Shown: positions 9,892 to 28,360 of the stretch, in pieces
Layout of the letters: every line of letters starts with the position of its first letter
Numbering within the stretch: position 1 is the stretch's first letter
Virus record (IMG/VR): IMGVR_UViG_3300009371_000232
Origin: a virus
Length of the DNA stretch: 28,360 nt
Direction: 5' to 3' (one strand)
The notes under the pieces: generated by a model
Databases searched by the model: none
Told to the model about the DNA's origin: nothing
What the model saw: only the letters and a program-made list of their open reading frames with translations
Made by a program: the position numbers and the translations under genes

Positions 9892-10803
9892 ATGCAGGTA
9901 GTAAACAATGCACCGGCAGGCGGTGGTGGCGGCGGGGCCGCATCGAACGAGGATTGGGTCAGGGTAGATATCACCGACGGAAATTGGAGCCTCAACGACC
10001 CAGACAGCACCCTGTCTTCGATTACGAACACGGGCGGCATCAATCAGGTTGTAGTCAGCACAGCGAATAACCCGCTGACGATCGACTCCGGCGTCCATTA
10101 TATGGAACTGAAAAACAACGATGGCACATCGATCGACTTCGGTGACCGTCCGGTGATGGTGCAGATATATGTGCACTGGCCGAATACTGGATGGGAAGCT
10201 GACGGGAATACAGGAGGCAACAACCGGCCAACAACCGCGAGCAGATGCTATACGGTGGCCGGCATTATGACTGACCCGGAGAACCTGCCGGCGACCGCAG
10301 GGGCGGCAGACCACCCGCTGGACCTTGTCGGCTATGGTCTCGAATGGAAGGGCTCAGCAGCGAAAACGAACAGGCGGGGCATCTACAACAAGGGCACAGG
10401 CTCGCCGCGCGGAACACTCACGCACATATCGTCCAACATGAACACGCCAACGTCATCCGACTACGCAGCGGGCAGGAAGGTCTGCAATCGGATTATGTGG
10501 TTCGGGCGAATCGCAAAGCAGGAATCCGCAACCGGCACCGGCATCAACGTCGTCGGTGAGCCCAACATGAACGAGTTCAGTTTTTCCCACCACTGGGATA
10601 ACGGGTACAAAGTGACAGGCGATGTGGAAACAGCCATGCCGCAGCGTTTTGGCCGTGTACGCACGGACAAGCTTTATCTATGGATCGCCAATGGGCGGGG
10701 GATGAGCGGGGCTGGTTCTTCAGTGACGATTGACTTTGACGTGTACTACCGAATCACCGCACTCGACAGCGGGAACCATCCATCCGGGAGGACGGGCGCA
10801 TGA
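9892..10803 (+). CDS. Putative tail fibre or receptor-binding protein.
   Basis: Last large gene of the tail module. It has an N-terminal G6 hinge (9919-9936), then a Gly/Asn/Thr-rich beta-type sequence. The assignment rests on position and composition only. Confidence 0.45.
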   Translation: MQVVNNAPAGGGGGGAASNEDWVRVDITDGNWSLNDPDSTLSSITNTGGINQVVVSTANNPLTIDSGVHYMELKNNDGTSIDFGDRPVMVQIYVHWPNTGWEADGNTGGNNRPTTASRCYTVAGIMTDPENLPATAGAADHPLDLVGYGLEWKGSAAKTNRRGIYNKGTGSPRGTLTHISSNMNTPTSSDYAAGRKVCNRIMWFGRIAKQESATGTGINVVGEPNMNEFSFSHHWDNGYKVTGDVETAMPQRFGRVRTDKLYLWIANGRGMSGAGSSVTIDFDVYYRITALDSGNHPSGRTGA

Positions 10804-10985
10804 ACTTCATAGACGACCCAGAGACACAGACCGAAAGCCACATAGACACGATCAACGAGGCTTATGATGTGGCCAGCATCCGCATCCGAATTCGGGTGAC
10901 CGAGTTGGCCGCAATCGCAGCCGGCACCGAGGCAGACAAAGACGCGTTCATCGAATGGCTAACCCCCGCCCCGGCCGGCGAATGA
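10800..10985 (+). CDS. Small acidic protein (61 aa), unknown function.
   Basis: ATGA overlap with the upstream gene at 10800-10803. ORF-track entry. Confidence 0.5.
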   Translation: MNFIDDPETQTESHIDTINEAYDVASIRIRIRVTELAAIAAGTEADKDAFIEWLTPAPAGE

Positions 10986-11596
10986 CCAAGGTGGTGGTCT
11001 ACCTGGACCGACAGCACAGCGGGAAGCCCGGCCGAAAGGCTGGGGACCGTGGCGCTGCCGTGGACCTGGATGGTGATGGCACCATCGGCATTGATGAGCG
11101 TGAAGCCATGCTGACGGCCCGGTATCTGCTGGCGTGCGAGGCGGCGCTTCTGGAGGCTGGCCACACGGTGATTCCCATATCGGACGGCTGGTACTCAGAC
11201 CGGCACGCCAGGGTCAACCAGTACGCGGGCGGATTCGACTGCCAGCAGGTGTACGTGGCGGCACATTTGAACGCTGGAAAAGGTGATTATGGAGCCGTTT
11301 TTTGGGATCACCGGTCACGCAGCGGGCCCGAGTTGGCGTCTCGCATCGCCCGACAGATCAGGATGGTCGCCCCGGAGATCAACGGGGTCAAGACCATCGC
11401 AGCCAAGCCGGATGACTGGACCCGTGCCGCATTCGCCACAATCGCGGGCGTGGTTCAGCCGGTAGCTATTTGTTTTGAGCCATTTTTTATGGATCAACCC
11501 AGCCATGCCGACCTGTCGAGCCGATCTGGTTTGGCGGCAATCGGTAGAGGACTCGCCGCAGGCATCGACGCCTGGGCCAACACATGTGAGGTATGA
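10982..11596 (+). CDS. Endolysin, N-acetylmuramoyl-L-alanine amidase (Amidase_3-like).
   Basis: ATG 10982 overlaps the upstream stop (ATGA). VYLDRQHSGKPG...DRGAA...EREAMLTARYLL..LLEAGHTVIPISDG.YSDRHARVNQYAG....VYVAAHLNAG matches the remembered Amidase_3 pattern (GHGG/D.Ga..E......L...G..v...R......R...aN......SiH.Na). Confidence 0.7.
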   Translation: MTKVVVYLDRQHSGKPGRKAGDRGAAVDLDGDGTIGIDEREAMLTARYLLACEAALLEAGHTVIPISDGWYSDRHARVNQYAGGFDCQQVYVAAHLNAGKGDYGAVFWDHRSRSGPELASRIARQIRMVAPEINGVKTIAAKPDDWTRAAFATIAGVVQPVAICFEPFFMDQPSHADLSSRSGLAAIGRGLAAGIDAWANTCEV

Positions 11597-11597
11597 G

Positions 11598-11786
11598 ATG
11601 AAAGCAGCATTTAACACACTATTCAGCGCCACCGAGCGCATCAGCTACCGGCGGTTGACCGTCTTTGCCACCGCATGCGGCCTGCTCATGGTGGACAAGC
11701 TGACGGGCGAGCAGTGGGTGATGGTCGCCATCAGCTACATCGCGGGCCAAGCTGCGCCAGCGATGGCTAAGGCTTTCCGTGGTTGA
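11598..11786 (+). CDS. Putative holin (62 aa, two hydrophobic segments).
   Basis: ATG 11598 lies 1 nt after the endolysin stop. Hydrophobic stretches are LTVFATACGLLMV and WVMVAISYIAGQAAPAMA. Confidence 0.5.
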   Translation: MKAAFNTLFSATERISYRRLTVFATACGLLMVDKLTGEQWVMVAISYIAGQAAPAMAKAFRG

Positions 11787-12030
11787 TTCGCTGGGCTGGG
11801 CTGTGGCTATCTTGGCGGCACTTGCGGCGGTCGTGGGTCGGTTTGTCTCGGCCAAACGGCGCAAGACCACCAGGGTGCCCACAGCCCCGCCTGAGCAGGT
11901 GGCAGCGTCTCACGCCAGGGACGCCATCGAAACGGCAGCACAGCGCGATATGAACGCCATAGACAACGCCCTGGAGGGTGACGACCCGGCCGGTGATGTG
12001 GCAGACATGGCAAACAGGCGGAAAAGATGA
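11779..12030 (+). CDS. Lysis-cassette membrane protein with an N-terminal TMD and a charged tail (holin, antiholin or spanin-like).
   Basis: The GTG start overlaps the previous gene. LGWAVAILAALAAVVGRFV is followed by KRRK and a charged helical region. Confidence 0.45.
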   Translation: MVDSLGWAVAILAALAAVVGRFVSAKRRKTTRVPTAPPEQVAASHARDAIETAAQRDMNAIDNALEGDDPAGDVADMANRRKR

Positions 12031-12455
12031 CAGCGCTTTTGATGCTCATTGCATCCGGGTGGGCTGGTTCGCTCGAAGCTCCACAACTCTCGGAGCCAAC
12101 CCCCAACGAGTGCGACCAGGCCACGCCCATCAGGGTCGGGGGCGGTATTCCTCCCGCTATCCTCGGCCCTGATGGGACCGTCCGCTGTCATGCCGTGGCG
12201 ATGCCCACCAGCGAAGTTGCGTATCTGCTGAAGCTCGAAGAATATCACGAGGCAATGGAGCGGCTACATGCACTGGATGTGGCGTTGCTCCAAGCCGAGC
12301 GGGATTGGTATCGTGACCAACTCGCCACAGAGCAGGCCCCGGTCCCATGGTATGAAACGCCCACAGCGCAACGATGGACGGGGCGTGCTGAAGTGTTAGC
12401 GGTGTTGACCGTCGTGACAATTGGATTAGGATATGGGTACAATCAAGCCAGGTGA
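12027..12455 (+). CDS. Lysis-cassette envelope protein with an N-terminal signal-like segment, a coiled-coil centre and a C-terminal TMD.
   Basis: ATGA overlap at 12027. N-terminus MTALLMLIASGWAGS has no lipobox Cys. The central region is LEEYHEAMERLHALDVALLQAERDWYRDQL and the C-terminus is AEVLAVLTVVTIGLGYGY. Confidence 0.45.
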   Translation: MTALLMLIASGWAGSLEAPQLSEPTPNECDQATPIRVGGGIPPAILGPDGTVRCHAVAMPTSEVAYLLKLEEYHEAMERLHALDVALLQAERDWYRDQLATEQAPVPWYETPTAQRWTGRAEVLAVLTVVTIGLGYGYNQAR

Positions 12456-12459
12456 AAGC

Positions 12460-12747
12460 ATGAACCAGACAGTGTTGATCGCAGGCATCCCGGCTTTGAT
12501 TGCGATCGGTGGTTCGCTGATGACTCTGGAGGCCACGGCCCAAGAGACTGAAAAGGTCTCCGAGCGGGTCAGGGCGATCGAGGTCAAGCAGGCCGAGGGC
12601 TCAGCCCTGGAAGTCATGGTGACCCAGAACACGAAAGACCTGGCAGCGCTGACCGCCATCGTGACCAAGATGGCAGAGAGTCAAAACGAAATGCTGAAGA
12701 ACCAGGTTTCCATCTGTGTCAGTACCGGCGCGGATTGTACCCGATAG
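12460..12747 (+). CDS. Lysis-cassette type II membrane protein, i-spanin-like (N-terminal TMD plus coiled coil).
   Basis: ATG 12460 lies 4 nt after the previous stop. VLIAGIPALIAIGGSLMTL is followed by a heptad-like charged region and two C-terminal Cys (CVSTGADC). Confidence 0.45.
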   Translation: MNQTVLIAGIPALIAIGGSLMTLEATAQETEKVSERVRAIEVKQAEGSALEVMVTQNTKDLAALTAIVTKMAESQNEMLKNQVSICVSTGADCTR

Positions 12748-12773
12748 CTAAATTGATGGGTTCCCTGTCCTGG

Positions 12774-12826
12774 GTGCCCCGCCTCTGATCGGCAATTGTC
12801 TGGTCAGGGGCACTTTGCTATTCGTT
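12774..12826 (+). terminator. Putative intrinsic terminator closing the structural and lysis operon.
   Basis: GTGCCCC (12774-12780) pairs with GGGGCAC (12807-12813). An inner TGA/TCA extension follows a 5-nt bulge, and TTTGCTATTCGTT follows the stem. It lies 27 nt after the last late stop codon. Confidence 0.45.
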
Positions 12827-12875
12827 GTACATGAAGCCAATTGCAATCTATCTTCACCTATCTCGCCCAATATCC

Positions 12876-12905
12876 TTGACGGGGATATTTAAACGGGTGT
12901 ATAAA
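12876..12905 (+). promoter_or_regulatory. Sigma70-like early promoter.
   Basis: TTGACG (12876-12881), an 18-nt spacer, then TATAAA (12900-12905), inside an AT-rich island. The predicted +1 is near 12912. Confidence 0.55.
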
Positions 12906-12919
12906 GAATATATGGAAAG

Positions 12920-12947
12920 CAACCAACCAACCCAGGACAACACCATG
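12920..12947 (+). repeat. Start-associated block, copy A (28-nt form, no hairpin).
   Basis: CAACCAACCAACCCAGGACAACACCATG, identical to 15493-15520. Confidence 0.9.
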
Positions 12948-13133
12948 ACCAACATCCTCGTGACCGAAACCTCCAAGAACCACGCGGGCGTGCCCTTCGC
13001 TGGCCTTGTCAACCTCGACGGCACCACGGCGCAATTCCTCGATGAGGACCACGCCAACGCATTCATCGAGGCAGAATCCAACGCTGCATTTTTCGCCGAG
13101 TTCGCTTCTGTTGAAGTGGTCCCAGCATCCTAA
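12945..13133 (+). CDS. Early small acidic protein (62 aa). The alternative in-frame start ATG 12912 would add MESNQPTQDNT.
   Basis: The ATG sits at the end of the conserved block. The promoter elements lie inside the longer track ORF 12825..13133, so that upstream start is excluded. Confidence 0.6.
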   Translation: MTNILVTETSKNHAGVPFAGLVNLDGTTAQFLDEDHANAFIEAESNAAFFAEFASVEVVPAS

Positions 13134-13177
13134 ACACTCACCGGGGCTTCGGCCCCCCAACCCAGGACAACACCATG
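13131..13177 (+). repeat. Intercistronic cassette, copy B (stop, spacer, cUUCGg hairpin, conserved block, ATG).
   Basis: TAAACACTCACC GGGGC-TTCG-GCCCC CC AACCCAGGACAACACC ATG. Confidence 0.9.
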
Positions 13178-13432
13178 GCAGCTTCCCCAAAATACAAGAT
13201 ATTCCAAAACGGCCAGTATCTCGGATCCCTCAAAAGGCCATCAGATGCCGCAGTACTGATATCGGTACTCGGCCCAGGGTCCAGTGTCAGGCTGGGACAT
13301 GCCAAGCGGGACACCCTGCTGGTGGTCACCGATGAGAACCATTCCGCAATCTGCGACAGCTACGACCAGACCGAGGACGCCATCTGCGAAGCCGAGAGCG
13401 CATTCCGCGCCCGACACCCTCTAATGTCATAA
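13175..13432 (+). CDS. Early protein (85 aa), unknown function.
   Basis: ORF-track entry. The ATG ends cassette copy B. Confidence 0.65.
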   Translation: MAASPKYKIFQNGQYLGSLKRPSDAAVLISVLGPGSSVRLGHAKRDTLLVVTDENHSAICDSYDQTEDAICEAESAFRARHPLMS

Positions 13433-13480
13433 ACACTCACCGGGGGGGGCAACCCCCCACCAACCCAGGACAACACCATG
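13430..13480 (+). repeat. Intercistronic cassette, copy C (GCAA tetraloop hairpin).
   Basis: TAAACACTCACC G GGGGGG-GCAA-CCCCCC ACC AACCCAGGACAACACC ATG. Confidence 0.9.
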
Positions 13481-13678
13481 AACATTCCACCCGGCCCATA
13501 CGCAGCCCCCGAGGGCAGCACCGAGAAAACCTACCAGGTGACCATCACCACGGTCGTTCCCATGACGCACACCGACCCGGCAGACTGGGACTTTGAAGCC
13601 CTGCTGGAGACCATCCGAGACCAGACCCACGGCGCAGATGTGCAGTCGGTCGAGATGACCCCAGGGGGTGCAGCATGA
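13478..13678 (+). CDS. Early small acidic protein (66 aa), unknown function.
   Basis: ORF-track entry. The ATG ends cassette copy C. Confidence 0.65.
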   Translation: MNIPPGPYAAPEGSTEKTYQVTITTVVPMTHTDPADWDFEALLETIRDQTHGADVQSVEMTPGGAA

Positions 13679-13986
13679 GGTGGCCCGACGGACCAAGATC
13701 AGCAGATAAGATACCAGAATTGGCGTGGACACTGTGGGATGACGGGAAGTTATATTCGAGCATCAGATGTGCCACTGGTGTGGTTACTTATCTTGAATAC
13801 CGCATAGTCCCCACCGAGACCGGCCGGTTCCGGTTGTTTATTGGTGACCGGTCTGCGGAGATCACAAAGACTGTATTCGCGGCGATGACCGCTGCAAGTA
13901 AGGACTCTCGCAGGTGGTATTCTTGGATCAAAAGTAAGCAGCAGAACCCCCGATCTCGGCACTACTACCCAGGCTGTGCAGCATGA
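13675..13986 (+). CDS. Early protein (103 aa), unknown function.
   Basis: ATGA overlap with the upstream gene and a GGGGGTG SD-like element upstream. Confidence 0.55.
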   Translation: MRWPDGPRSADKIPELAWTLWDDGKLYSSIRCATGVVTYLEYRIVPTETGRFRLFIGDRSAEITKTVFAAMTAASKDSRRWYSWIKSKQQNPRSRHYYPGCAA

Positions 13987-14057
13987 ACATCAGCAAACGC
14001 GAGATACTGGCGCGGGCCATCGTGGGCATCATGGTCGTTCTGTGGTGTCTGCTATGA
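13983..14057 (+). CDS. Possible 24-aa hydrophobic micro-protein (MNISKREILARAIVGIMVVLWCLL).
   Basis: Hand translation. Its ATG overlaps the upstream stop (ATGA at 13983-13986), and its own stop overlaps the next ATG (ATGA at 14054-14057). Confidence 0.3.
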   Translation: MNISKREILARAIVGIMVVLWCLL

Positions 14058-14485
14058 GCCGCCAACCATGGAAGGACAGCCCCATCGGGTCCAGGGCATT
14101 CGAGGAACACGAGGCCAAGCTACGCGGGCAGGCCGATCTATTCGACAAGGACCAGCACATCGGCACGATGGACGACCCACCAGCGCCCGACACGCCCGAG
14201 TCACGGGCACGGCTGGCCAAGCTGGACGCAGCCCTGGAGGACATCGCGCGCAGCCAAGCAGAGGCCAACCAGGACCGCACATTGAATAGCTATGACCAGG
14301 CCAGGCTCGACAACATCACGGCCATCGGTGCGCTGGAACAAGAGTTGCTGGAGGTCATCAACGAGGCCCGGCCGCACGTGTACCGTCAGCAGTACCACGG
14401 CAGGCATGAGCAGGATCGGGCCGATGCCGTGGCATGGCTTCAAAAGTGGACAGGCCAGGACCACGAGGGGGTGAATGATGACTGA
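14054..14485 (+). CDS. Early coiled-coil protein (143 aa), unknown function.
   Basis: In-frame ATG of track ORF 13976..14485. The 26 residues upstream of it (QHEHQQTRDTGAGHRGHHGRSVV) look like off-frame noise. Confidence 0.55.
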   Translation: MSRQPWKDSPIGSRAFEEHEAKLRGQADLFDKDQHIGTMDDPPAPDTPESRARLAKLDAALEDIARSQAEANQDRTLNSYDQARLDNITAIGALEQELLEVINEARPHVYRQQYHGRHEQDRADAVAWLQKWTGQDHEGVNDD

Positions 14486-14714
14486 AGCAGAACACGACCG
14501 ACTGGAGTGGGAGGCAGAGCGCGCCAGATACAACGACTGGGCCGCACAGATAGAGGTCCAGATCCCCGAGGGTGACCCCGACGATGTGCCAGACACCCAC
14601 GAGTGTGCCACCTGCGGCAGGGTCTCCGAGGACATGGACGAGCTATTGCGGCCCTGCGGTGATTCACGGGGCGAGTGGTACTGCCACCGAGGGCAAGGGT
14701 GCCAAAGTGGGTAG
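14475..14714 (+). CDS. Early protein with a C-terminal four-Cys zinc-ribbon-like motif.
   Basis: ECATCGRVSEDMDELLRPCGDSRGEWYCHRGQGC. GAGGGGGTG lies upstream of the ATG. Confidence 0.6.
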   Translation: MMTEAEHDRLEWEAERARYNDWAAQIEVQIPEGDPDDVPDTHECATCGRVSEDMDELLRPCGDSRGEWYCHRGQGCQSG

Positions 14715-14787
14715 GCGGCTATCAGACCACGACACGTACGATCTGGCGGTGGGTCCACCACGCCCATCGCCAACCCAGGGCAGCCGG

Positions 14788-15165
14788 ATGTCTCCGCCGG
14801 AGTACGACCGACCACCACCGGGTCCCGAGCCCGCGCCTGACCAGATGGGCGCACTGGTCAAGGCCCAGTCAGACCTGCACAGGGCGTCACATGCCGTGCT
14901 GTCTGCAATCGCAGCGGCCGACAGGGAGGCCCAGGATGCCCGTGACGCCATCGAAGCGGCCCAGATGATGGAACGCGCACGGGTGGCACTGGAACGCAGT
15001 CTGGCGCCACTGGAGCGCAACCAGGAGCCACCCACGGGCCCGGCTATCATGGCGTGCGCCCGGTGCGGTTCCCAGGGCATCGCCATCAGCCCGGAGCGGT
15101 CGACGGTCTGGTACTGCCCAGCCGGTTACGGGTGCAACCAGGAGGCCACAGATGCCGATCTATGA
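14788..15165 (+). CDS. Early protein with a paralogous C-terminal zinc-ribbon-like motif. The start is uncertain; GTG 14707 and GTG 14749 are alternatives.
   Basis: ACARCGSQGIAISPERSTVWYCPAGYGC matches the CxxCG...WYC..G.GC pattern of the upstream gene. ATG 14788 is preceded by an eroded conserved block, CCAACCCAGGGCAGCCGG. Confidence 0.5.
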   Translation: MSPPEYDRPPPGPEPAPDQMGALVKAQSDLHRASHAVLSAIAAADREAQDARDAIEAAQMMERARVALERSLAPLERNQEPPTGPAIMACARCGSQGIAISPERSTVWYCPAGYGCNQEATDADL

Positions 15166-15346
15166 ATACCGATGCGCAGAGTGCGGCACCCAGGTGGAGC
15201 AACTGCAATCATTCGATGACCCAGCACCCACGTGCCCCAAGTGCGCCGATACCGTCAACAAGCTGCGCCGGATGTCAAAGCAGGTGTCCCGGTCAAGCTT
15301 CCGCTTGGAGGGCGGCGGATGGGCGCACGACGGATACAGTGGGTGA
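15152..15346 (+). CDS. FmdB-family zinc-ribbon protein (CxxC_CxxC_SSSS type).
   Basis: MPIYEYRCAECGTQVEQLQSFDDPAPTCPKCAD is the hallmark N-terminus of this family. AGGAGG lies 7 nt upstream. Confidence 0.75.
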   Translation: MPIYEYRCAECGTQVEQLQSFDDPAPTCPKCADTVNKLRRMSKQVSRSSFRLEGGGWAHDGYSG

Positions 15347-15393
15347 TGTGAAGGTCCAGCCGATGTTTCTGGGGAGAGACTGAACGCTGGACA

Positions 15394-15424
15394 GGGACCC
15401 TGTTTCATGGTGTTGCAGGGTCCC
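15394..15424 (+). promoter_or_regulatory. 9-bp perfect stem-loop after the FmdB-like gene, a possible terminator or processing site.
   Basis: GGGACCCTG (15394-15402) and CAGGGTCCC (15416-15424) flank a 13-nt loop. No U-tract follows. Confidence 0.4.
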
Positions 15425-15444
15425 ACCTTCACCATTCCCCATAA

Positions 15445-15463
15445 ATATACTTGCGCGGTATAT
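15445..15463. promoter_or_regulatory. Operator-like palindrome ATATAC-N7-GTATAT overlapping a weak promoter-like element.
   Basis: 6-bp perfect inverted arms. TTGCGC (15451-15456), a 17-nt spacer, then TAGTGG (15474-15479). Confidence 0.35.
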
Positions 15464-15492
15464 CAGGAGCAATTAGTGGACAGTATGAGAAT

Positions 15493-15520
15493 CAACCAAC
15501 CAACCCAGGACAACACCATG
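15493..15520 (+). repeat. Start-associated block, copy D (28-nt form, no hairpin).
   Basis: Identical to 12920-12947. Confidence 0.9.
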
Positions 15521-16072
15521 GAAACCGAGACCACCAGCCAGATCACCGACGCGACCCGATACCGCTTGTTCCTTGCGAACAGGAAGCACAGCAAAACCGA
15601 GCCGACCGAGAACGCAGTGGAGAAGGCAGAGGACCTGTTTGATGGCCATCTTCGGGTCAGTGAATATGCCGCCCGTAAAGCTTGGTTCGCCGGTGACTTG
15701 CAGATCGCCGCAAAGCCTTGTCGCCCCGTCGAGTTTGTGGACCACGCCATTCGTTGCGCGATGGACAAGGACTACACAGCCTATGATGCCGACGGATACC
15801 GGATCGACCGCGAGAACACCACCGACATCGTCGATGTGCTCCGCGCCCTGAAGGTCATGGCGGCTTCGCATCGCGCCATGCGCGCCAGTAACCTTTACGT
15901 TGGGGTATCCTTGTGCCACAACGACCCGAGCACCGACAGATCGATCGCCCAAGACCGCGCAAACTGCCACCTTCTCCGCCGCGCCGTGGCGATTCTGGAA
16001 ACCCGCCTTGCAGCCCGCGCTAAAGAGTTGGCTCGCGAATGTTCCCGCATCCGTCGCGCACTGAAAGCCTAA
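15518..16072 (+). CDS. Early protein (184 aa), unknown function. The alternative in-frame start ATG 15485 would add MRINQPTQDNT.
   Basis: The ATG ends conserved block D. The track ORF 15407..16072 extends upstream across the hairpin and palindrome region. Confidence 0.6.
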   Translation: METETTSQITDATRYRLFLANRKHSKTEPTENAVEKAEDLFDGHLRVSEYAARKAWFAGDLQIAAKPCRPVEFVDHAIRCAMDKDYTAYDADGYRIDRENTTDIVDVLRALKVMAASHRAMRASNLYVGVSLCHNDPSTDRSIAQDRANCHLLRRAVAILETRLAARAKELARECSRIRRALKA

Positions 16073-16118
16073 ACACCCAACGGGGCTTCGGCCCCACAAC
16101 CCCAGGACAAACACCATG
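16070..16118 (+). repeat. Intercistronic cassette, copy E (cUUCGg hairpin, variant core).
   Basis: TAAACACCCAAC GGGGC-TTCG-GCCCC A CAACCCCAGGACAAACACC ATG. Confidence 0.85.
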
Positions 16119-16358
16119 TACACCGAACCAGGCCAACCAGGGCACCCAACCCAGGACAACACCATGAAAGACTACACCGACCCAGGCCAAGAGTTGGCCA
16201 ACACCATCACCATCCTGTCGAGGCTGCTGGTAACATTCGCAGAGCAAGCACACGAGGACGGCAAGCCCGGCCAAGCTGGGCAAATGGAAGCCATAGCCGG
16301 TCAACTGAACCGGGCTGTGGATGAGTTCAACACAGCAGAAGACGCGAAGCCATTCTAA
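16116..16358 (+). CDS. Early protein (80 aa, or 64 aa if translation starts at ATG 16164).
   Basis: Two conserved blocks in tandem each end in an in-frame ATG (16116 and 16164). Confidence 0.55.
   Translation: MYTEPGQPGHPTQDNTMKDYTDPGQELANTITILSRLLVTFAEQAHEDGKPGQAGQMEAIAGQLNRAVDEFNTAEDAKPF
16148..16166 (+). repeat. Start-associated block, copy F (perfect 19-nt core inside or at the start of the 16116 ORF).
   Basis: AACCCAGGACAACACCATG. Confidence 0.9.
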
Positions 16359-16394
16359 CCACGGGGGCAACCCCACAACCCAGGACAAACCATG
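16356..16394 (+). repeat. Intercistronic cassette, copy G (GCAA hairpin, shortened core).
   Basis: TAACCAC GGGG-GCAA-CCCC AC AACCCAGGACAAACC ATG. Confidence 0.85.
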
Positions 16395-17138
16395 CCACCG
16401 GCAAAGAAACACAACAGCATCGCAGAGGCATTGGCCACTGCACAATCCAAGATGGGCAACGCGGTCAAGAACAGCGTTAACCCACACTTCAAAAGCACGT
16501 TCGCCGACTTCCCAGCGGTGCGTGACATCGTAATTCCGGCACTATCCGCAGAGGGTATCGCGTGTATCCAGCACGTGGACGGTGCTGACGGATGCGTGAC
16601 TGTGCGCACCACGATCCATTGGATGGAGACCACCATCGAGGCGGGCAATTGCACGATCAAATTGGACGGGCGGAACGCTGCCCAGGCGGTCGGCAGTGCG
16701 ACCACGTACCTGAAGCGGTATCAACTGGCGGCGGTGGGCGGCATCGCCCAAGAGGACGATGATGGCCAATCGGCCACAAACGAGCCCAGTAACCCGACAT
16801 CCATGGCACGGGCACCAAGTACCGCCCAGCCACAGAAACGCGCCCCAGCGCCCACCAGGGGCACCGCAACCAACGTCCCCGACTGCCCGACATGCCAAGG
16901 GCCGATGTGGGACAACCGTGAACAGCGAGAACAGCAGAAGCGAGACAAGCAGGAAGGAACCCGATCGAAGGCACCGGGGCCTGCATACAAGTGCAAGGAC
17001 AAAAGCTGTGGCGGGGTCCACTGGGAGGCACCGAGCGAAATGGGTTCAAGAATCGAGAATGACGGAATGCATGCCGACGCCCAACAGCAGGAAGAACGCA
17101 GCGAGCGTGGAGGGTTCGACGATGGACTGCCCTTCTAA
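16392..17138 (+). CDS. erf: ERF-family single-strand annealing recombinase with a C-terminal zinc ribbon and an SSB-like acidic tip.
   Basis: IAEALATAQSKMGNAVKNSVNPHFKSTFADF...GSATTYLKRYQLAAVGGIAQEDDD matches the remembered ERF pattern (N..fks.Ya.L ... tY.kRY.l....Gi..eDDD). The C-terminal part carries CPTC...CKDKSC and ends in FDDGLPF. Confidence 0.75.
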   Translation: MPPAKKHNSIAEALATAQSKMGNAVKNSVNPHFKSTFADFPAVRDIVIPALSAEGIACIQHVDGADGCVTVRTTIHWMETTIEAGNCTIKLDGRNAAQAVGSATTYLKRYQLAAVGGIAQEDDDGQSATNEPSNPTSMARAPSTAQPQKRAPAPTRGTATNVPDCPTCQGPMWDNREQREQQKRDKQEGTRSKAPGPAYKCKDKSCGGVHWEAPSEMGSRIENDGMHADAQQQEERSERGGFDDGLPF

Positions 17139-17682
17139 GGCACTGCCAGGCCAGCGCGATATGTTCGGCGCAGCAGCTACACCGCCACCAGCGCCCGAGT
17201 TGACCCCGGAGATCATGCGGGCGGCCCTGGCGAAGCTCCGGGGTCAGGTATCGGCCAAGCTGGACGATGGGGTCGCGTGCCCATGCTGCGACAAGTACGC
17301 CCGGCGATACCGCCGGAAGTTCAATGCATCGATGGCCCGGTCGTTGATCTGGCTGGTCCGTCAATCCGAGGCATCACAGGACGGCTGGGTCGATGTGCCA
17401 GCCACGGCCCCGCGCTGGCTGGTCAGGACGAACCAACTTCCGACCGTGCGCTGGTGGGGAATGATTGAACGCGCAGAGCCCACAGAGGACAACACCAAGC
17501 ACAGCGGGCGGTGGAGGCCGACCGACCTGGGCAAGCGGTTCGCATATCAGCGCACCACGGCACAGGCTGCGGCGGTCACGTACAACGGCGAGGTGATTGG
17601 CTTCGAGGGTGGACAGATCACCATTGACGGCGCCCTGGGCACGCGGTTTAGCTACTTCGACTTGATGGGGTGGGACGAATGA
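17122..17682 (+). CDS. Putative DNA-binding protein with a CPCC zinc-finger-like motif, function unknown.
   Basis: GGAGGG lies 7 nt upstream of ATG 17122. The upstream part of track ORF 16759..17682 overlaps erf out of frame. Motif seen: ACPCCDKYARRYRRKFNASMARSLIWLV. Confidence 0.55.
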   Translation: MDCPSKALPGQRDMFGAAATPPPAPELTPEIMRAALAKLRGQVSAKLDDGVACPCCDKYARRYRRKFNASMARSLIWLVRQSEASQDGWVDVPATAPRWLVRTNQLPTVRWWGMIERAEPTEDNTKHSGRWRPTDLGKRFAYQRTTAQAAAVTYNGEVIGFEGGQITIDGALGTRFSYFDLMGWDE

Positions 17683-18220: not shown

Positions 18221-18227
18221 GGACACC

Positions 18228-18479
18228 ATGACAATCACAATCACATTCGGCCAGATGGTCCGATCTATGCGCACCCGACAGGGACTAACACAGACCCAGC
18301 TTGCCGAGACACTGGCGCCGATGGTGCGGGGCCTCGCACAGGGGCATATATCTGACCTGGAACGGGGGCTGTTTCACCCGTCAGGGCGTCAGGTGGCGTG
18401 TCTGCTGGACGTTCTGGAGGCGGGGCTACACGAGCGCATTCAGGCGCTGACGCTACTCAGCCAGGAGGCGGCGGCATGA
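18228..18479 (+). CDS. XRE-family helix-turn-helix transcriptional regulator.
   Basis: FGQMVRSMRTRQGLTQTQLAETL...ISDLERG is the canonical Cro/C1-type HTH. The start context is TGAGGACACCATG. Confidence 0.7.
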   Translation: MTITITFGQMVRSMRTRQGLTQTQLAETLAPMVRGLAQGHISDLERGLFHPSGRQVACLLDVLEAGLHERIQALTLLSQEAAA

Positions 18480-18943
18480 GTTGGGAGGAATGTCTGCGGG
18501 TGACGATACCCGGACCGCCAGTGCCAAAGGGCCGACCCCGTGCAGTGTTCAGGCGCCGCAAGGTGCGCATGTTCACGCCACAGGCGACCATTGACTATGA
18601 GAAGAAGGTCGCGCTGGTGGTCGGGTCGGGCACTCACTTTCGAGGGCAGCCAAGGCCATTGTGCGGCAACGATGCACCGGTCAGGCTGGATGTGGTGGCC
18701 ATATTCCCACGCCCCCAGGCGATGAACCGGAAGAAGGACCCAGACGGATTGATCCCACACGCAAAACGGCCCGACCTGGACAACGTGGTCAAGGCCATCA
18801 GTGACGGCATCGACAAGCTGGACGGCATGGTGTGGCGGGACGATGGCCAGGTCCAGACCATCAGGGCGGAGTCATGGTACGCGGAGCGGGGCCAACCGGC
18901 CAGAACGCTGGTCGTAGTTTACAGGTGGAAGGAACCCAATTAG
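18476..18943 (+). CDS. rusA: RusA-family Holliday junction resolvase.
   Basis: IPGPPVPKGRPR...FTPQ...HAKRPDLDNVVKAISDGIDKLDGMVWRDDGQV matches the remembered RusA pattern (P.sKgRPR ... kPDlDNl.Ka..Dal...vw.DD.qv). AGGAGG lies 7 nt upstream. Confidence 0.8.
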   Translation: MSWEECLRVTIPGPPVPKGRPRAVFRRRKVRMFTPQATIDYEKKVALVVGSGTHFRGQPRPLCGNDAPVRLDVVAIFPRPQAMNRKKDPDGLIPHAKRPDLDNVVKAISDGIDKLDGMVWRDDGQVQTIRAESWYAERGQPARTLVVVYRWKEPN

Positions 18944-27437: not shown

Positions 27438-28360
27438 ATGGACATCCAAAACAAAGCAGATGCACTTCAGGTGCTGTCCGAAATTACTTCCGAGCAGAAG
27501 CGACTCAAGGAAGCCAACCGCGACCTTAGTGAGAACCTGGAGGCCAAGGCCGCCGACCTCAAGGCAGTCCAACAAAAGTTGGCCGAGATGTCCGCACCCA
27601 AGGTGGTGACCGTCTCCGAGAAGGAAGCCACCCTGCGCAAGTTCGTTGGCGCCGATGGTAGCCTGGACGTTGCTGGCATGGCATCCGATGATGTTGACCG
27701 TGGCGAATGGCACAGCGAGTTTAAGCGGTTGATCGACGATCGCAACTTGGCCAAGCTGATGACCAAGAGCGGCAACGTGCCCAAGATGGACGCGAAGCTG
27801 AACATGCACATGGCATCAGCCCCGGTTGACGTTCGCCGTGCATTCTCCGACGCCGCTGGAGTTGGCGCCGAGTGGATCCCCGACCTGGTTCTGCCTGAGT
27901 TGGCTAAGCAATTGTATGTAGGCGGTGCGGTGGAAAGCCTCTTTCCAACCATCAACCTTCAGAGCAAGGAACTTCGTCTGCCCGTGCTGAACACCCAGGT
28001 TCGCCCCTATTACAAGAACGGCGCAACATGGGGAACCATCACTGCACAGGATGACGTGACAAGCCAAGTAAGCGTCACGGCCAAGTCATTCGGAAGCAGA
28101 ATTTCCGTCGATGAAGACGCCAGCGCTGATGCAATCACCGCCGGCCTCGACTTCGTAAGAAGTGCCCTTTCCGATGCCCTGAGCCACGCCGTTGAAGGGT
28201 GCATCCTGAACGGGGATGAAACCGCAGCACACCTGGACCTCAACACGACAGGATCACCGCGAGCATTCAACCCGGCATCACGCTGGAACGCCACCGGCAT
28301 CGGTGACGCTGACGATCACCGCCGAGCATTCGACGGGCTGCGAAGCCTGGCCAATGACGC
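27438..28360 (+). CDS. Major capsid protein, N-terminal part. It is open at the window end and continues at base 120 via the terminal overlap.
   Basis: GTAGGAG lies 7 nt upstream of ATG 27438. Hand translation gives MDIQNKADALQVLSEITSEQKRLKEANRDLSENLEAKAADLKAVQQKLAEM... (coiled-coil delta-like region), with no stop before 28360. Confidence 0.85.
   Translation, partial: MDIQNKADALQVLSEITSEQKRLKEANRDLSENLEAKAADLKAVQQKLAEMSAPKVVTVSEKEATLRKFVGADGSLDVAGMASDDVDRGEWHSEFKRLIDDRNLAKLMTKSGNVPKMDAKLNMHMASAPVDVRRAFSDAAGVGAEWIPDLVLPELAKQLYVGGAVESLFPTINLQSKELRLPVLNTQVRPYYKNGATWGTITAQDDVTSQVSVTAKSFGSRISVDEDASADAITAGLDFVRSALSDALSHAVEGCILNGDETAAHLDLNTTGSPRAFNPASRWNATGIGDADDHRRAFDGLRSLAND
28242..28360. repeat. 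Terminal overlap copy 2, identical to 1-119.
   Basis: 119/119 identity with the window start. Confidence 0.95.

Follow-up and report, generated by a model that had tools for sequence, protein, structure and literature searches.

Across the 28,360 nucleotides (nt) of IMG/VR virus record IMGVR_UViG_3300009371_000232, hereafter the window, four junctions between early genes are built from one portable intercistronic unit, or cassette, of about 45 nt. Taking together its layout, its conservation among related marine phages, the gene exchange that falls at it and its complementarity to a hairpin loop located after the late genes, we consider it probable that this unit acts as a standard ribosome-binding module, as a linker for recombination and as the common target of an antisense RNA made late. 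An earlier note, made from the letters of this DNA alone, had drawn attention to a repeated 19-mer, AACCCAGGACAACACCATG, and we find it letter-perfect at 12929, 13159, 13462, 15502 and 16148, every copy on the + strand, where shuffled sequences would lead one to expect 0.02. A base-by-base check of the four junctions likewise bore out a common build consisting of a TAA stop codon, a 4- or 9-nt box, a hairpin capped by UUCG or GCAA, a CA-rich core and the ATG of the following gene. These units, together with two further copies of the core, are as follows.

13131-13177, + strand: intercistronic unit A, TAA, ACACTCACC (the box, RNA form ACACUCACC), GGGGC-UUCG-GCCCC, CCAACCCAGGACAACACC, ATG.
13430-13480, + strand: intercistronic unit B, TAA, ACACTCACC (the box, RNA form ACACUCACC), G8-CAA-C6, ACCAACCCAGGACAACACC, ATG.
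16070-16118, + strand: intercistronic unit C, TAA, the hybrid 5' box ACACCCAAC, GGGGC-UUCG-GCCCC, ACAACCCCAGGACAAACACC, ATG.
16356-16394, + strand: intercistronic unit D, before erf, TAA, CCAC, GGGG-GCAA-CCCC, ACAACCCAGGACAAACC, ATG.
14772-14790, + strand: eroded core AACCCAGGGCAGCCGG followed by ATG, inside a block that is not shuffled.
16148-16166, + strand: extra core and ATG, 48 nt past ATG 16116 and in frame with it.

The hairpin of unit B, written here as G8-CAA-C6, can also be read as G6-GCAA-C6 with spare G's, which is how it had first been described. Unit D has an orthologue in 12 relatives, with a GCGA loop in the copy of L045 (designations beginning with L denote sequences compared with the window). 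The variant cores at 16097 and 16377 depart from the core by one or two single-base indels: that of unit C carries two 1-nt insertions, and that of unit D, which a 16-mer search allowing mismatches also recovers, a 1-nt deletion. A 28-nt form, CAACCAACCAACCCAGGACAACACCATG, is identical at 12920 and 15493, with promoter-like sequence upstream of both, and the remaining genes have AAGGAG, GGGAGGA or AGGAGG Shine-Dalgarno (SD) sites. Two eroded copies had been proposed in addition. We regard the one at 14772-14790 as credible because its register to the ATG is unchanged and four relatives conserve it, while the other, at 18221-18230, consists of only GAGGACACCATG and is unconvincing. Within 16116-16166 the start is doubled: after an ATG come 32 nt, another full core and another ATG, all in one frame. 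L002 has the same arrangement, and in other relatives the gene begins at the second of these ATGs. The stretch of 32 nt between ATG 16116 and the second core contains AACCAGG twice, just upstream of the core's AACCCAGG. This doubled start suggests a recombination scar or a dual start.

Searching databases with the 19-nt core revealed the unit to be a family-wide trait of related marine phages, which do conserve the block. A scan of IMG/VR and the JGI metagenomes for the 19-mer returned about 17 related marine contigs with 1-14 units apiece, and units are also present in L045, L046, L048, L049, L051 and L053, relatives found by protein homology and not by the motif. We counted 81 distinct units on 23 contigs, of which 26 bear a GNRA and 17 a UNCG hairpin, 20 score as leader type and 18 are of other types or eroded; every start is an ATG, every copy lies on the + strand, and all are in the early region. 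In an alignment of the units, positions -17 to -1 are nearly invariant, a conservation profile subject to ascertainment bias at positions -13 to -5, which the search pattern fixed, and few G or U are seen between -22 and +15. The distance from AGGA to ATG is 7 nt, changing to 6 or 8 nt in the indel variants. Among 185,579 reference genomes (596 Gb), the 19-mer gave four singleton matches in unrelated metagenome-assembled genomes; these are at the estimated chance level of about 4 and provide no clue to the host. The core sequence was not found in the literature searched.

The candidate partner of the core is situated past the last late gene, whose stop codon is at 12745-12747, and before the first early promoter, P1. 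There, a search for the complement of the core found its single + strand site, GTCCTGGG at 12767-12774, within a conserved two-hairpin element (12758-12811) that lies beyond the region covered by the earlier note.

12758-12779, + strand: hairpin 1, in the 3' untranslated region of the late operon, GGGUUCCC-UGUCCU-GGGUGCCC.
12781-12811, with a tail to 12821, + strand: hairpin 2, terminator-like and found by the terminator scan, with the U-containing tail ACUUUGCUAU.

Hairpin 1 holds the anti-core UGUCCUGGGU (12766-12775), whose reverse complement, ACCCAGGACA, is part of the core. Across nine relatives, 98.3% of the cells of the two-hairpin element are paired and six pairs show compensatory changes, a covariation score reached by none of 500 shuffles; the pairing collapses when the 3' partners are slid by 1-3 columns, and the G.U pairs are compatible with + strand RNA only. 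Hairpin 2 contributes 13 pairs, with 99% of cells paired and three pairs with compensatory changes, and in hairpin 1 the stem changes are compensatory around an invariant UCCUG. Fold z-scores of the element range from -2.7 to -5.3 across lineages and stand at -3.4 for the window. These formal pair counts were restricted to the nine close relatives because a MAFFT alignment of all five hairpin-1 types put the types with a 12-nt loop out of register. The G+C hairpin and subsequent U tract of an intrinsic terminator are found at 12781-12821, in an element apart from the cassettes, and this predicted terminator ends the late transcription unit directly after hairpin 1.

Hairpin 1 occurs with five different stems, those of the window (type W), L009, L015/L045, L050 and L066. 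The stems of the W and L009 types (GUGCGAAU and GUUCGCAC) are wholly different, and the loop UGUCCU is identical. In every contig that includes both regions, the loop and its flanks complement that contig's own cores over 8-11 nt.

W: complement in core ACCCAGGACA, 10 nt (9 nt at 16116; shuffle p about 9e-4).
L009: complement in core CAGGACAA, 8 nt.
L015, L045 and L051: complement in core AACCCAGGA(A), 9-10 nt.
L050 and L066: cores (G/A)AGGACGAAC with loop UUGUUCGUCCUC, 9-11 nt.

The 10-nt complement of the L015/L045 type is exactly the variant core that precedes erf in L045, and, from a reading of the sequence, the AGGGA variant of L045 still pairs with UUCCU via a G.U wobble. L050 was fetched by its last late gene, at 49% identity; its early cores differ, reading (C)CAAGGACGAACAAC-ATG, and its hairpin 1, GCCA-UUGUUCGUCCUC-UGGC, has a 12-nt loop that perfectly complements AGGACGAACAA (11 nt). 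L066, a 29.8-kb contig of a further lineage, has the loop of L050 on a different stem, GCGCCG / CGGCGC. Its units read GGCCCCC-UUCG/UACG-GGGGGCC ACAACC GAGGACGAA..., with one start reading AGGAGGACGAACC, and complementarity to the loop spans 9, 10 and 11 nt at these units compared to 3-7 nt at its other start regions. The matches of L050 and L066 to their own loop indicate that core and loop changed together, and the architecture of the unit (tetraloop hairpin, ACAACC, SD core) persists in both despite the different core. Core/loop matches across lineages reach only 5-6 nt and non-cassette starts 3-7 nt, with shuffle p-values for loop/core complementarity from 2.5e-4 to 1.6e-2. Of 41 initiation regions tested against the anti-core seed, the eroded core at 14772-14790 gives the best duplex (-21.7 kcal/mol).

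These observations bear on two proposals of the earlier note. One, listed there as a candidate, took the core to be a start-associated sequence read by a phage or host factor; this is supported, though in an unanticipated form, since the candidate factor is an RNA, the hairpin loop at the 3' end of the late operon, which is antisense to the core and co-varies with it. The other held that conservation this far beyond AGGA implies an added function, which stands for the stretch that pairs with the antisense loop but not for the 3' half of the core, variable in distant relatives. The orthologous P1 and erf units of the more distant L045 read AACCCAGGGACACACA and AACCCAGGAAACAAG, so the 3' half of the core can change and part of the letter-perfect identity is attributable to homogenisation or shared descent. 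The constrained part of the core is thus the stretch that pairs with the antisense loop.

Alignment of the relatives showed that the cassettes mark gene-content breakpoints. A role as recombination linkers, as in the promoter-early-stem-loop elements (PeSLs) of T4-like phages, had been one of the suggestions from the sequence, and as an evolutionary role it is strongly supported, with a breakpoint at every cassette (7/7) and genes in changed slots. Within 12900-16450, 23 of 42 blastn alignment ends fall inside cassette intervals, which make up 11.9% of that stretch, and 6 of 13 clustered breakpoints lie in cassettes (binomial p = 0.0023). Identity to L009 shifts sharply from one inter-cassette segment to the next.

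10706-12948, tail region: 85.9% identity to L009.
12927-13177, first early gene: 96.5% identity to L009.
16147-16927, erf region: 79.7% identity to L009.

The 59 cassette-headed open reading frames (ORFs) fall into 27 similarity groups, of which E, F, G and J change slots between phages. Two of these are represented in the window.

12945-13133, + strand: ORFan of 62 aa, group F, in the P1 slot here and in the P2 slot in L009, with 96.5% nt identity.
15518-16072, + strand: ORFan of 184 aa, group G, in the P2 slot here and in the P1 slot in L031.

Group E takes first place after P1 in L037, second place in L009 and, behind P2, third place in L002, and group J occupies the P2 slot in L015 and the P1 slot in L018. 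Every combination of 5' box, hairpin type, linker and core variant is represented, the hybrid box ACACCCAAC included, and L049 has a junction within the hairpin itself. In L019, 745-1045 (identical in L034), a single 70-aa ORF has a partial cassette upstream and, on its downstream side, a cassette broken off after CCAGGACAA and followed by AAGTTTTTTT. The backbone is an Arctic marine contig of 51-54% GC with otherwise nothing in common with the family, and the segment resembles an ORF-plus-cassette module that was transplanted. A 103-aa gene at 13675-13986 is missing from L002, L009 and L037 and has on either side a copy of a ~20-nt direct repeat that ends in GGTGCAGCATGA (around 13668 and 13976), a case of module exchange at a cassette-free junction.

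Annealing proteins of the Erf kind recombine with about 40-50 nt of homology, and the phage's own Erf is a candidate driver of short-homology exchange. Integron-like capture was ruled out, as the window ORFs scanned against PHROGs or Pfam include no integrase and there is no GTTRRRY core and no other attC feature. Integron cassettes involve the tyrosine integrase IntI and imperfect palindromes of 57-141 bp with R and L core sites, whereas the units here measure about 45 nt.

The stems of the cassette hairpins comprise 4-8 G-C bp and remain paired among the relatives while their length and polarity vary: polarity is flipped in L020 and L036 (GGCCCCC-UUCG-GGGGGCC), and the stem of L048 holds one G.U pair. 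Their loops are UUCG, UCCG (L015), UACG (L066), GCAA and GCGA (L045), with few exceptions to UNCG and GNRA, the classic extra-stable RNA tetraloops. From the end of the hairpin to the ATG the distance is 18 nt; from the TAA to the start of the hairpin it is 9 nt in three of the window's four units and 4 nt in the one before erf, a spacing that places the hairpin outside the space of a terminating or initiating ribosome. Folds predict the core to be unpaired. Fold-energy z-scores of single cassettes (-0.2 to -1.0) are not significant because G and C runs also fold in shuffles, and the evidence for these predicted hairpins is comparative throughout. We ruled them out as canonical intrinsic terminators, since no T run follows the hairpin in any unit preceding a start codon, ACAACCC coming after each hairpin instead, and none was listed by the terminator scan. 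Hairpin-protected mRNA processing, another suggestion of the earlier note, is plausible, the hairpins having the look of RNA elements. For RNase III, stems of 4-8 bp are much too small.

Only two units per genome lie behind a promoter. These leader-type units begin at the predicted transcription start (AUGGAAAGC...) and contain the core without a hairpin.

12870-12905, + strand: early promoter P1, -35 TTGACG (12876-12881), 18-nt spacer, -10 TATAAA (12900-12905).
12912-12947, + strand: leader-type unit 1, AUGGAAAGCAACCAACC, core AACCCAGGACAACACC (12929-12944), ATG 12945.
15394-15424, + strand: hairpin GGGACCCUG...CAGGGUCCC after the Zn-ribbon gene, from a reading of the sequence, kept in relatives.
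15445-15479, + strand: early promoter P2, -35 TTGCGC (15451-15456), 17-nt spacer, -10 TAGTGG (15474-15479).
15485-15520, + strand: leader-type unit 2, AUGAGAAUCAACCAACC, core (15502-15517), ATG 15518.

The layout of P1 is kept in nine relatives; a simple promoter scan missed it because that scan needs a T at position 6 of the -10 hexamer. Both -35 hexamers are centred in palindromes (ATATCC-TTGACGG-GGATAT, 12870-12888, and ATATAC-TTGCGCG-GTATAT, 15445-15463) that are kept in relatives, L050 included, and look like operators for a dimeric regulator. The hairpin at 15394-15424 is probably the end of early operon 1, and it went unlisted by the terminator scan because it lacks a T run. In 17 of 17 leader units of close relatives an upstream ATG, within ATGGAAAGC or ATGAGAA, is located where transcription is predicted to start, 33 or 48 nt ahead of the annotated start and in its frame. 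Core variants of +/-1 nt occur in 0 of 17 leader units versus 11 of 42 intercistronic units (Fisher p = 0.024). L050 has its upstream ATG 40 nt off in another frame, and its P2 leader lacks one. A leaderless or in-frame upstream-ATG start is hinted at by the leader units and was left as weak, the pattern not being kept in L050.

The window carries a direct repeat of 119 nt at its ends (1-119 and 28242-28360) and is thus a complete genome, assembled as a circle of about 28,241 bp; several marine samples yielded the same genome as 28.2-28.3-kb contigs with differing start points. All window genes are on the + strand.

Up to 12747, + strand: capsid end, tail tube, tape measure, other tail genes and probable lysis genes.
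From 12945 and from 15518, + strand: two early operons.
From 16392, + strand: erf, then RusA and ParB-methyltransferase genes.
Following these, + strand: TerL, a portal fused to a MuF-like domain, and protease.
16392-17138, + strand: Erf-type single-strand annealing protein, the last cassette-headed gene (phrog_2324/155, PF04404).
18398-18943, + strand: RusA-type Holliday junction resolvase (PF05866, 1.1e-21).

The phage is a small, marine, siphophage-like one without a close cultured relative. A tape measure and a tail tube were detected among the window proteins, with no sheath match and no T4-type similarity; megablast gave no match, and tblastn of portal, TerL and tail tube stayed below 30% identity throughout, except for one short partial tail-tube match at 32%. 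We found zero tRNA genes in the genome and zero Pfam or PHROG matches for the accessory ORFs, anti-defence families included, and an Rfam 15 scan of 12400-17400 on both strands (E<=1) returned only a chance match to a small Cajal body-specific RNA. A 64-aa Zn-ribbon protein (15152-15346; PF09723, FmdB-like) closes early operon 1 directly before P2; with a weak Com-like match (4e-4) it is a candidate regulator, and it has a homologue in all lineages examined, the distant L050, L066, L069 and L071 included. At 13983-14057, a 24-codon ORF with a hydrophobic product shares ATGA stop/start overlaps with both neighbours, and in the conserved, non-shuffled block genes are coupled through such overlaps and not through cassettes. 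L045 has a QueC-like gene (PF06508; 8649-9218) in its early or replication region that the window does not have, which hints at 7-deazaguanine DNA modification. Another lineage-specific repeated start region, GCAATCAACGAGCAACAG, precedes two early genes of L069 (5170-5470), one copy coming after a TAA-ACACCCAACC-GGGGGCAACCCCC hairpin and having no SD.

The proposed mechanism assigns three roles to the unit. The 3' core, whose position before the ATG is evident, would be the ribosome-binding site (RBS), with a weak AGGA SD 7 nt from the ATG in a tract almost devoid of G and U and predicted to be unstructured, and the hairpin would probably serve as an RNA insulator or decay barrier between cistrons. 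Each accessory gene is, in addition, bracketed by a common 40-60 nt, and comparison of relatives shows whole genes inserted, deleted, replaced and relocated at the units, the result of homologous exchange during co-infection that the phage's own Erf and RusA plausibly drive. Finally, the core may be the common target of the loop at 12758-12779, the hairpin directly before the late terminator. An RNA with the late-operon 3' end would accumulate after transcription reaches the end of the late genes, and its pairing with ACCCAGGACA would cover the SD of all cassette-headed genes, leading to shut-off or other joint control. A gene recombining into a slot would then gain a translation start and RNA control together. 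Antisense pairing would explain both the conservation past AGGA and why the constrained stretch is the pairing stretch.

Somewhat more tentatively, and with the odds slightly against it, we propose that this arrangement amounts to a plug-in regulon, in which the late-operon 3' end is or yields a small antisense RNA that would pair with the portable cassette to effect a timed shut-off, core and loop forming a co-evolving address for each lineage. Were this true, the unit would be a natural standardised viral part, its ~45 nt combining insulation, ribosome site, exchange handle and, by deduction, antisense address, and it would explain how small phages turn over their accessory early genes, probably host-takeover or anti-defence genes, without breaking operon expression.

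Several points weigh against the proposal that one unit carries all three roles. We infer the RNA ends, the RNA pairing and the effect on translation alike from sequence, and a late shut-off of erf is not obviously useful. Contigs fetched with the 19-mer are biased towards perfect cores, one copy per such contig being exact by construction; the anti-core of the W type was found by a complement search, leaving L050 and L066 as the only true replications; and the p-values are not independent because the lineages are related. Of the W-type anti-core only 6 nt belong to the loop and the other 4 nt to the stem, pairing in the L009 type extends over no more than 8 nt (p = 0.013), and no comparable element was present in the temperate-looking relatives L069, L071 and L072. 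A double-stranded DNA (dsDNA)-binding protein recognising the core in either orientation would also give co-variation. In addition, breakpoints occur at the cassette-free junctions 13657-13679, 13968-13974 and 15135-15152, so the cassette is not required for exchange.

Among the alternatives, the unit could be nothing more than a good unstructured RBS kept uniform by recombination or gene conversion, with the loop serving another role or none and no control in trans. That the P1 and erf units of L045 differ in the 3' half of their core makes full identity unnecessary, and cassette parts in all combinations are what recombination within units predicts. CA-rich leaders can, moreover, drive SD-less translation in bacteria, the omega leader of tobacco mosaic virus being translated in E. 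coli according to PMC13577412. We nonetheless judge this reading unlikely, since it accounts neither for a loop conserved while five different stems changed around it nor for the loop's complementarity to its own core, which extends to the lineage-specific CGA insertion of L050 and L066, both fetched independently of the motif. Also left unexplained is the sharp boundary in leader units, where a variable 15-nt insert abuts the invariant core.

A protein might read the core instead, either a RegA-like or Com-like RNA binder or a stoperator-like regulator of dsDNA, in which case the inverted copy before P1 would be another of its sites. An asymmetric core in one orientation at many early starts fits such an operator, as do the palindromes at both promoters, which suit a dimeric regulator, and the conserved Zn-ribbon protein with its weak Com-like match (PF09723, 4e-4) that ends early operon 1 in all lineages seen; a DNA-binding protein would likewise yield core/anti-core co-variation. 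However, the matched stretch shifts by lineage (ACCCAGGACA, CAGGACAA, AACCCAGGA(A), (G)AGGACGAAC(AA)), leaving AGGA, too little for a protein site, as the only part common to all. The inverted copy, moreover, is always found in an RNA hairpin loop with G.U pairs adjoining a terminator, the AGGGA of L045 retains pairing through G.U wobble, and Pfam and PHROG scans detected no RegA-like or other RNA-binding family, making this reading very unlikely in our estimation. The hairpins, finally, could carry the main function, as transcription attenuators or terminators or as RNase processing or stability sites that, like the early RNase III sites of T7, would set a gradient or give each small early gene its own mRNA, the core being a passenger RBS. 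Hyperstable UNCG or GNRA hairpins at most intercistronic units, with stems that stay paired and a fixed place between stop codon and RBS, are in keeping with this. But no T run follows the junction hairpins, which are hence not canonical intrinsic terminators, 4-8-bp stems are far below RNase III substrate size, and leader-type units keep the core without a hairpin, implying that the core is conserved in its own right; we hold this last reading to be highly improbable.

Returning to the unit as RBS module, linker and antisense target, the closest known systems are the PeSLs, the start-associated sequences (SAS) as well as extended SAS (ESAS) of cluster K mycobacteriophages, and phage antisense RNAs, and the unit belongs to none of them. 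PeSLs, from T4-type phages, are units of about 100 bp that each contain a sigma-70 promoter and a stem-loop tested as a terminator (PMC2839356; PMC4122927), and recombination between them yields mini-circles (Arbiol et al. 2010, PMC2839356; PMC4122927). The likeness lies in short composite units with a GGGG...CCCC stem-loop between small ORFans of hyperplastic early regions, in indel and replacement end points between relatives that fall in the units, as they do here, and in the proposed mechanism of homologous recombination between units with expression signals travelling with the gene. Unlike PeSLs, the intercistronic units of the window, TAA-ACACTCACC-hairpin-ACAACCCAGGACAACACC, have no -35 or -10 and measure about 45 nt, their G/C stem-loop has no T run, the conserved part is their RBS and spacer, and the genes stay polycistronic. 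The genome is furthermore a 28-kb siphophage-like one and not that of a T4-type myovirus, and an antisense partner has not been described for PeSLs.

SAS elements have the 13-bp consensus GGGATAGGAGCCC located 3-9 bp before the start codon of non-structural genes, and ESAS are 17-bp imperfect inverted repeats with a variable spacer that contain a promoter (PMC3203893). The function of SAS was still described as unknown in 2024-2025. Like SAS, the window core is an asymmetric, SD-containing motif with a preference for ATG starts, situated just before the ATGs of non-structural genes of different families in a single orientation, often after an inverted repeat, and conserved past the needs of an SD. 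The two sequences, AACCCAGGACAACACC in the window and GGGATAGGAGCCC in SAS, have only AGGA in common, however, and the hairpins here have stems of 4-8 bp and loops of 3-4 nt without the promoter of ESAS. Hosts of SAS phages are mycobacterial, SAS genes largely retain their SAS across phages, and slot shuffling has not been described for them. K1 phages have one reverse SAS copy away from any start. In Anaya (JF704106 59870-59882; L057 10871-10883), a predicted hairpin, GCGCGG-CCUCCUAUCC-CCGCGC, carries the reverse SAS in its 10-nt loop and belongs to a non-coding gap of 385 nt that has matches in 182 cluster K phages and includes several invariant blocks; the loop is CU-rich in 7 of 9 phages sampled and is a poorer SAS match in K6 phages. 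This predicted loop is a possible antisense partner for SAS, which we offer as a lead only. If our reading of the window is true, the same logic may explain the cluster K SAS, unexplained since 2011, in mycobacteriophages of a kind used in phage therapy.

Phage antisense RNAs that mask ribosome-binding sites include c4 of phages P1 and P7, acting on icd-ant, and sar of P22, acting on ant. As with these, a short phage RNA is predicted here to show an RBS-complementary sequence in a stem-loop, and in silico we find the antisense stretch in a conserved stem-loop, complementary to the SD and co-varying with its targets. While c4 and sar serve immunity or anti-repressor control at one or two sites, the RNA predicted here would be the 3' end of the late operon, with 8 targets in the window genome and up to 14 in relatives, all of them copies of one portable cassette. 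RegA of T4 is a protein translational repressor of early messages with a loose AU-rich site, and it resembles the present case in that many early genes would be jointly controlled via a shared element of the initiation region and switched off later. Here, though, the candidate regulator is an RNA and the site a near-identical CA-rich 16-mer, and the system, if true, would be an RNA counterpart of such protein-mediated early shut-off. Lambdoid phages have short conserved sequences at gene boundaries that were proposed, under the modular theory, to guide homologous exchange of modules. Those boundary sequences are sporadic, weakly conserved and without defined structure, in contrast to the highly ordered unit described here, which carries expression signals and occurs in up to 14 copies per genome.

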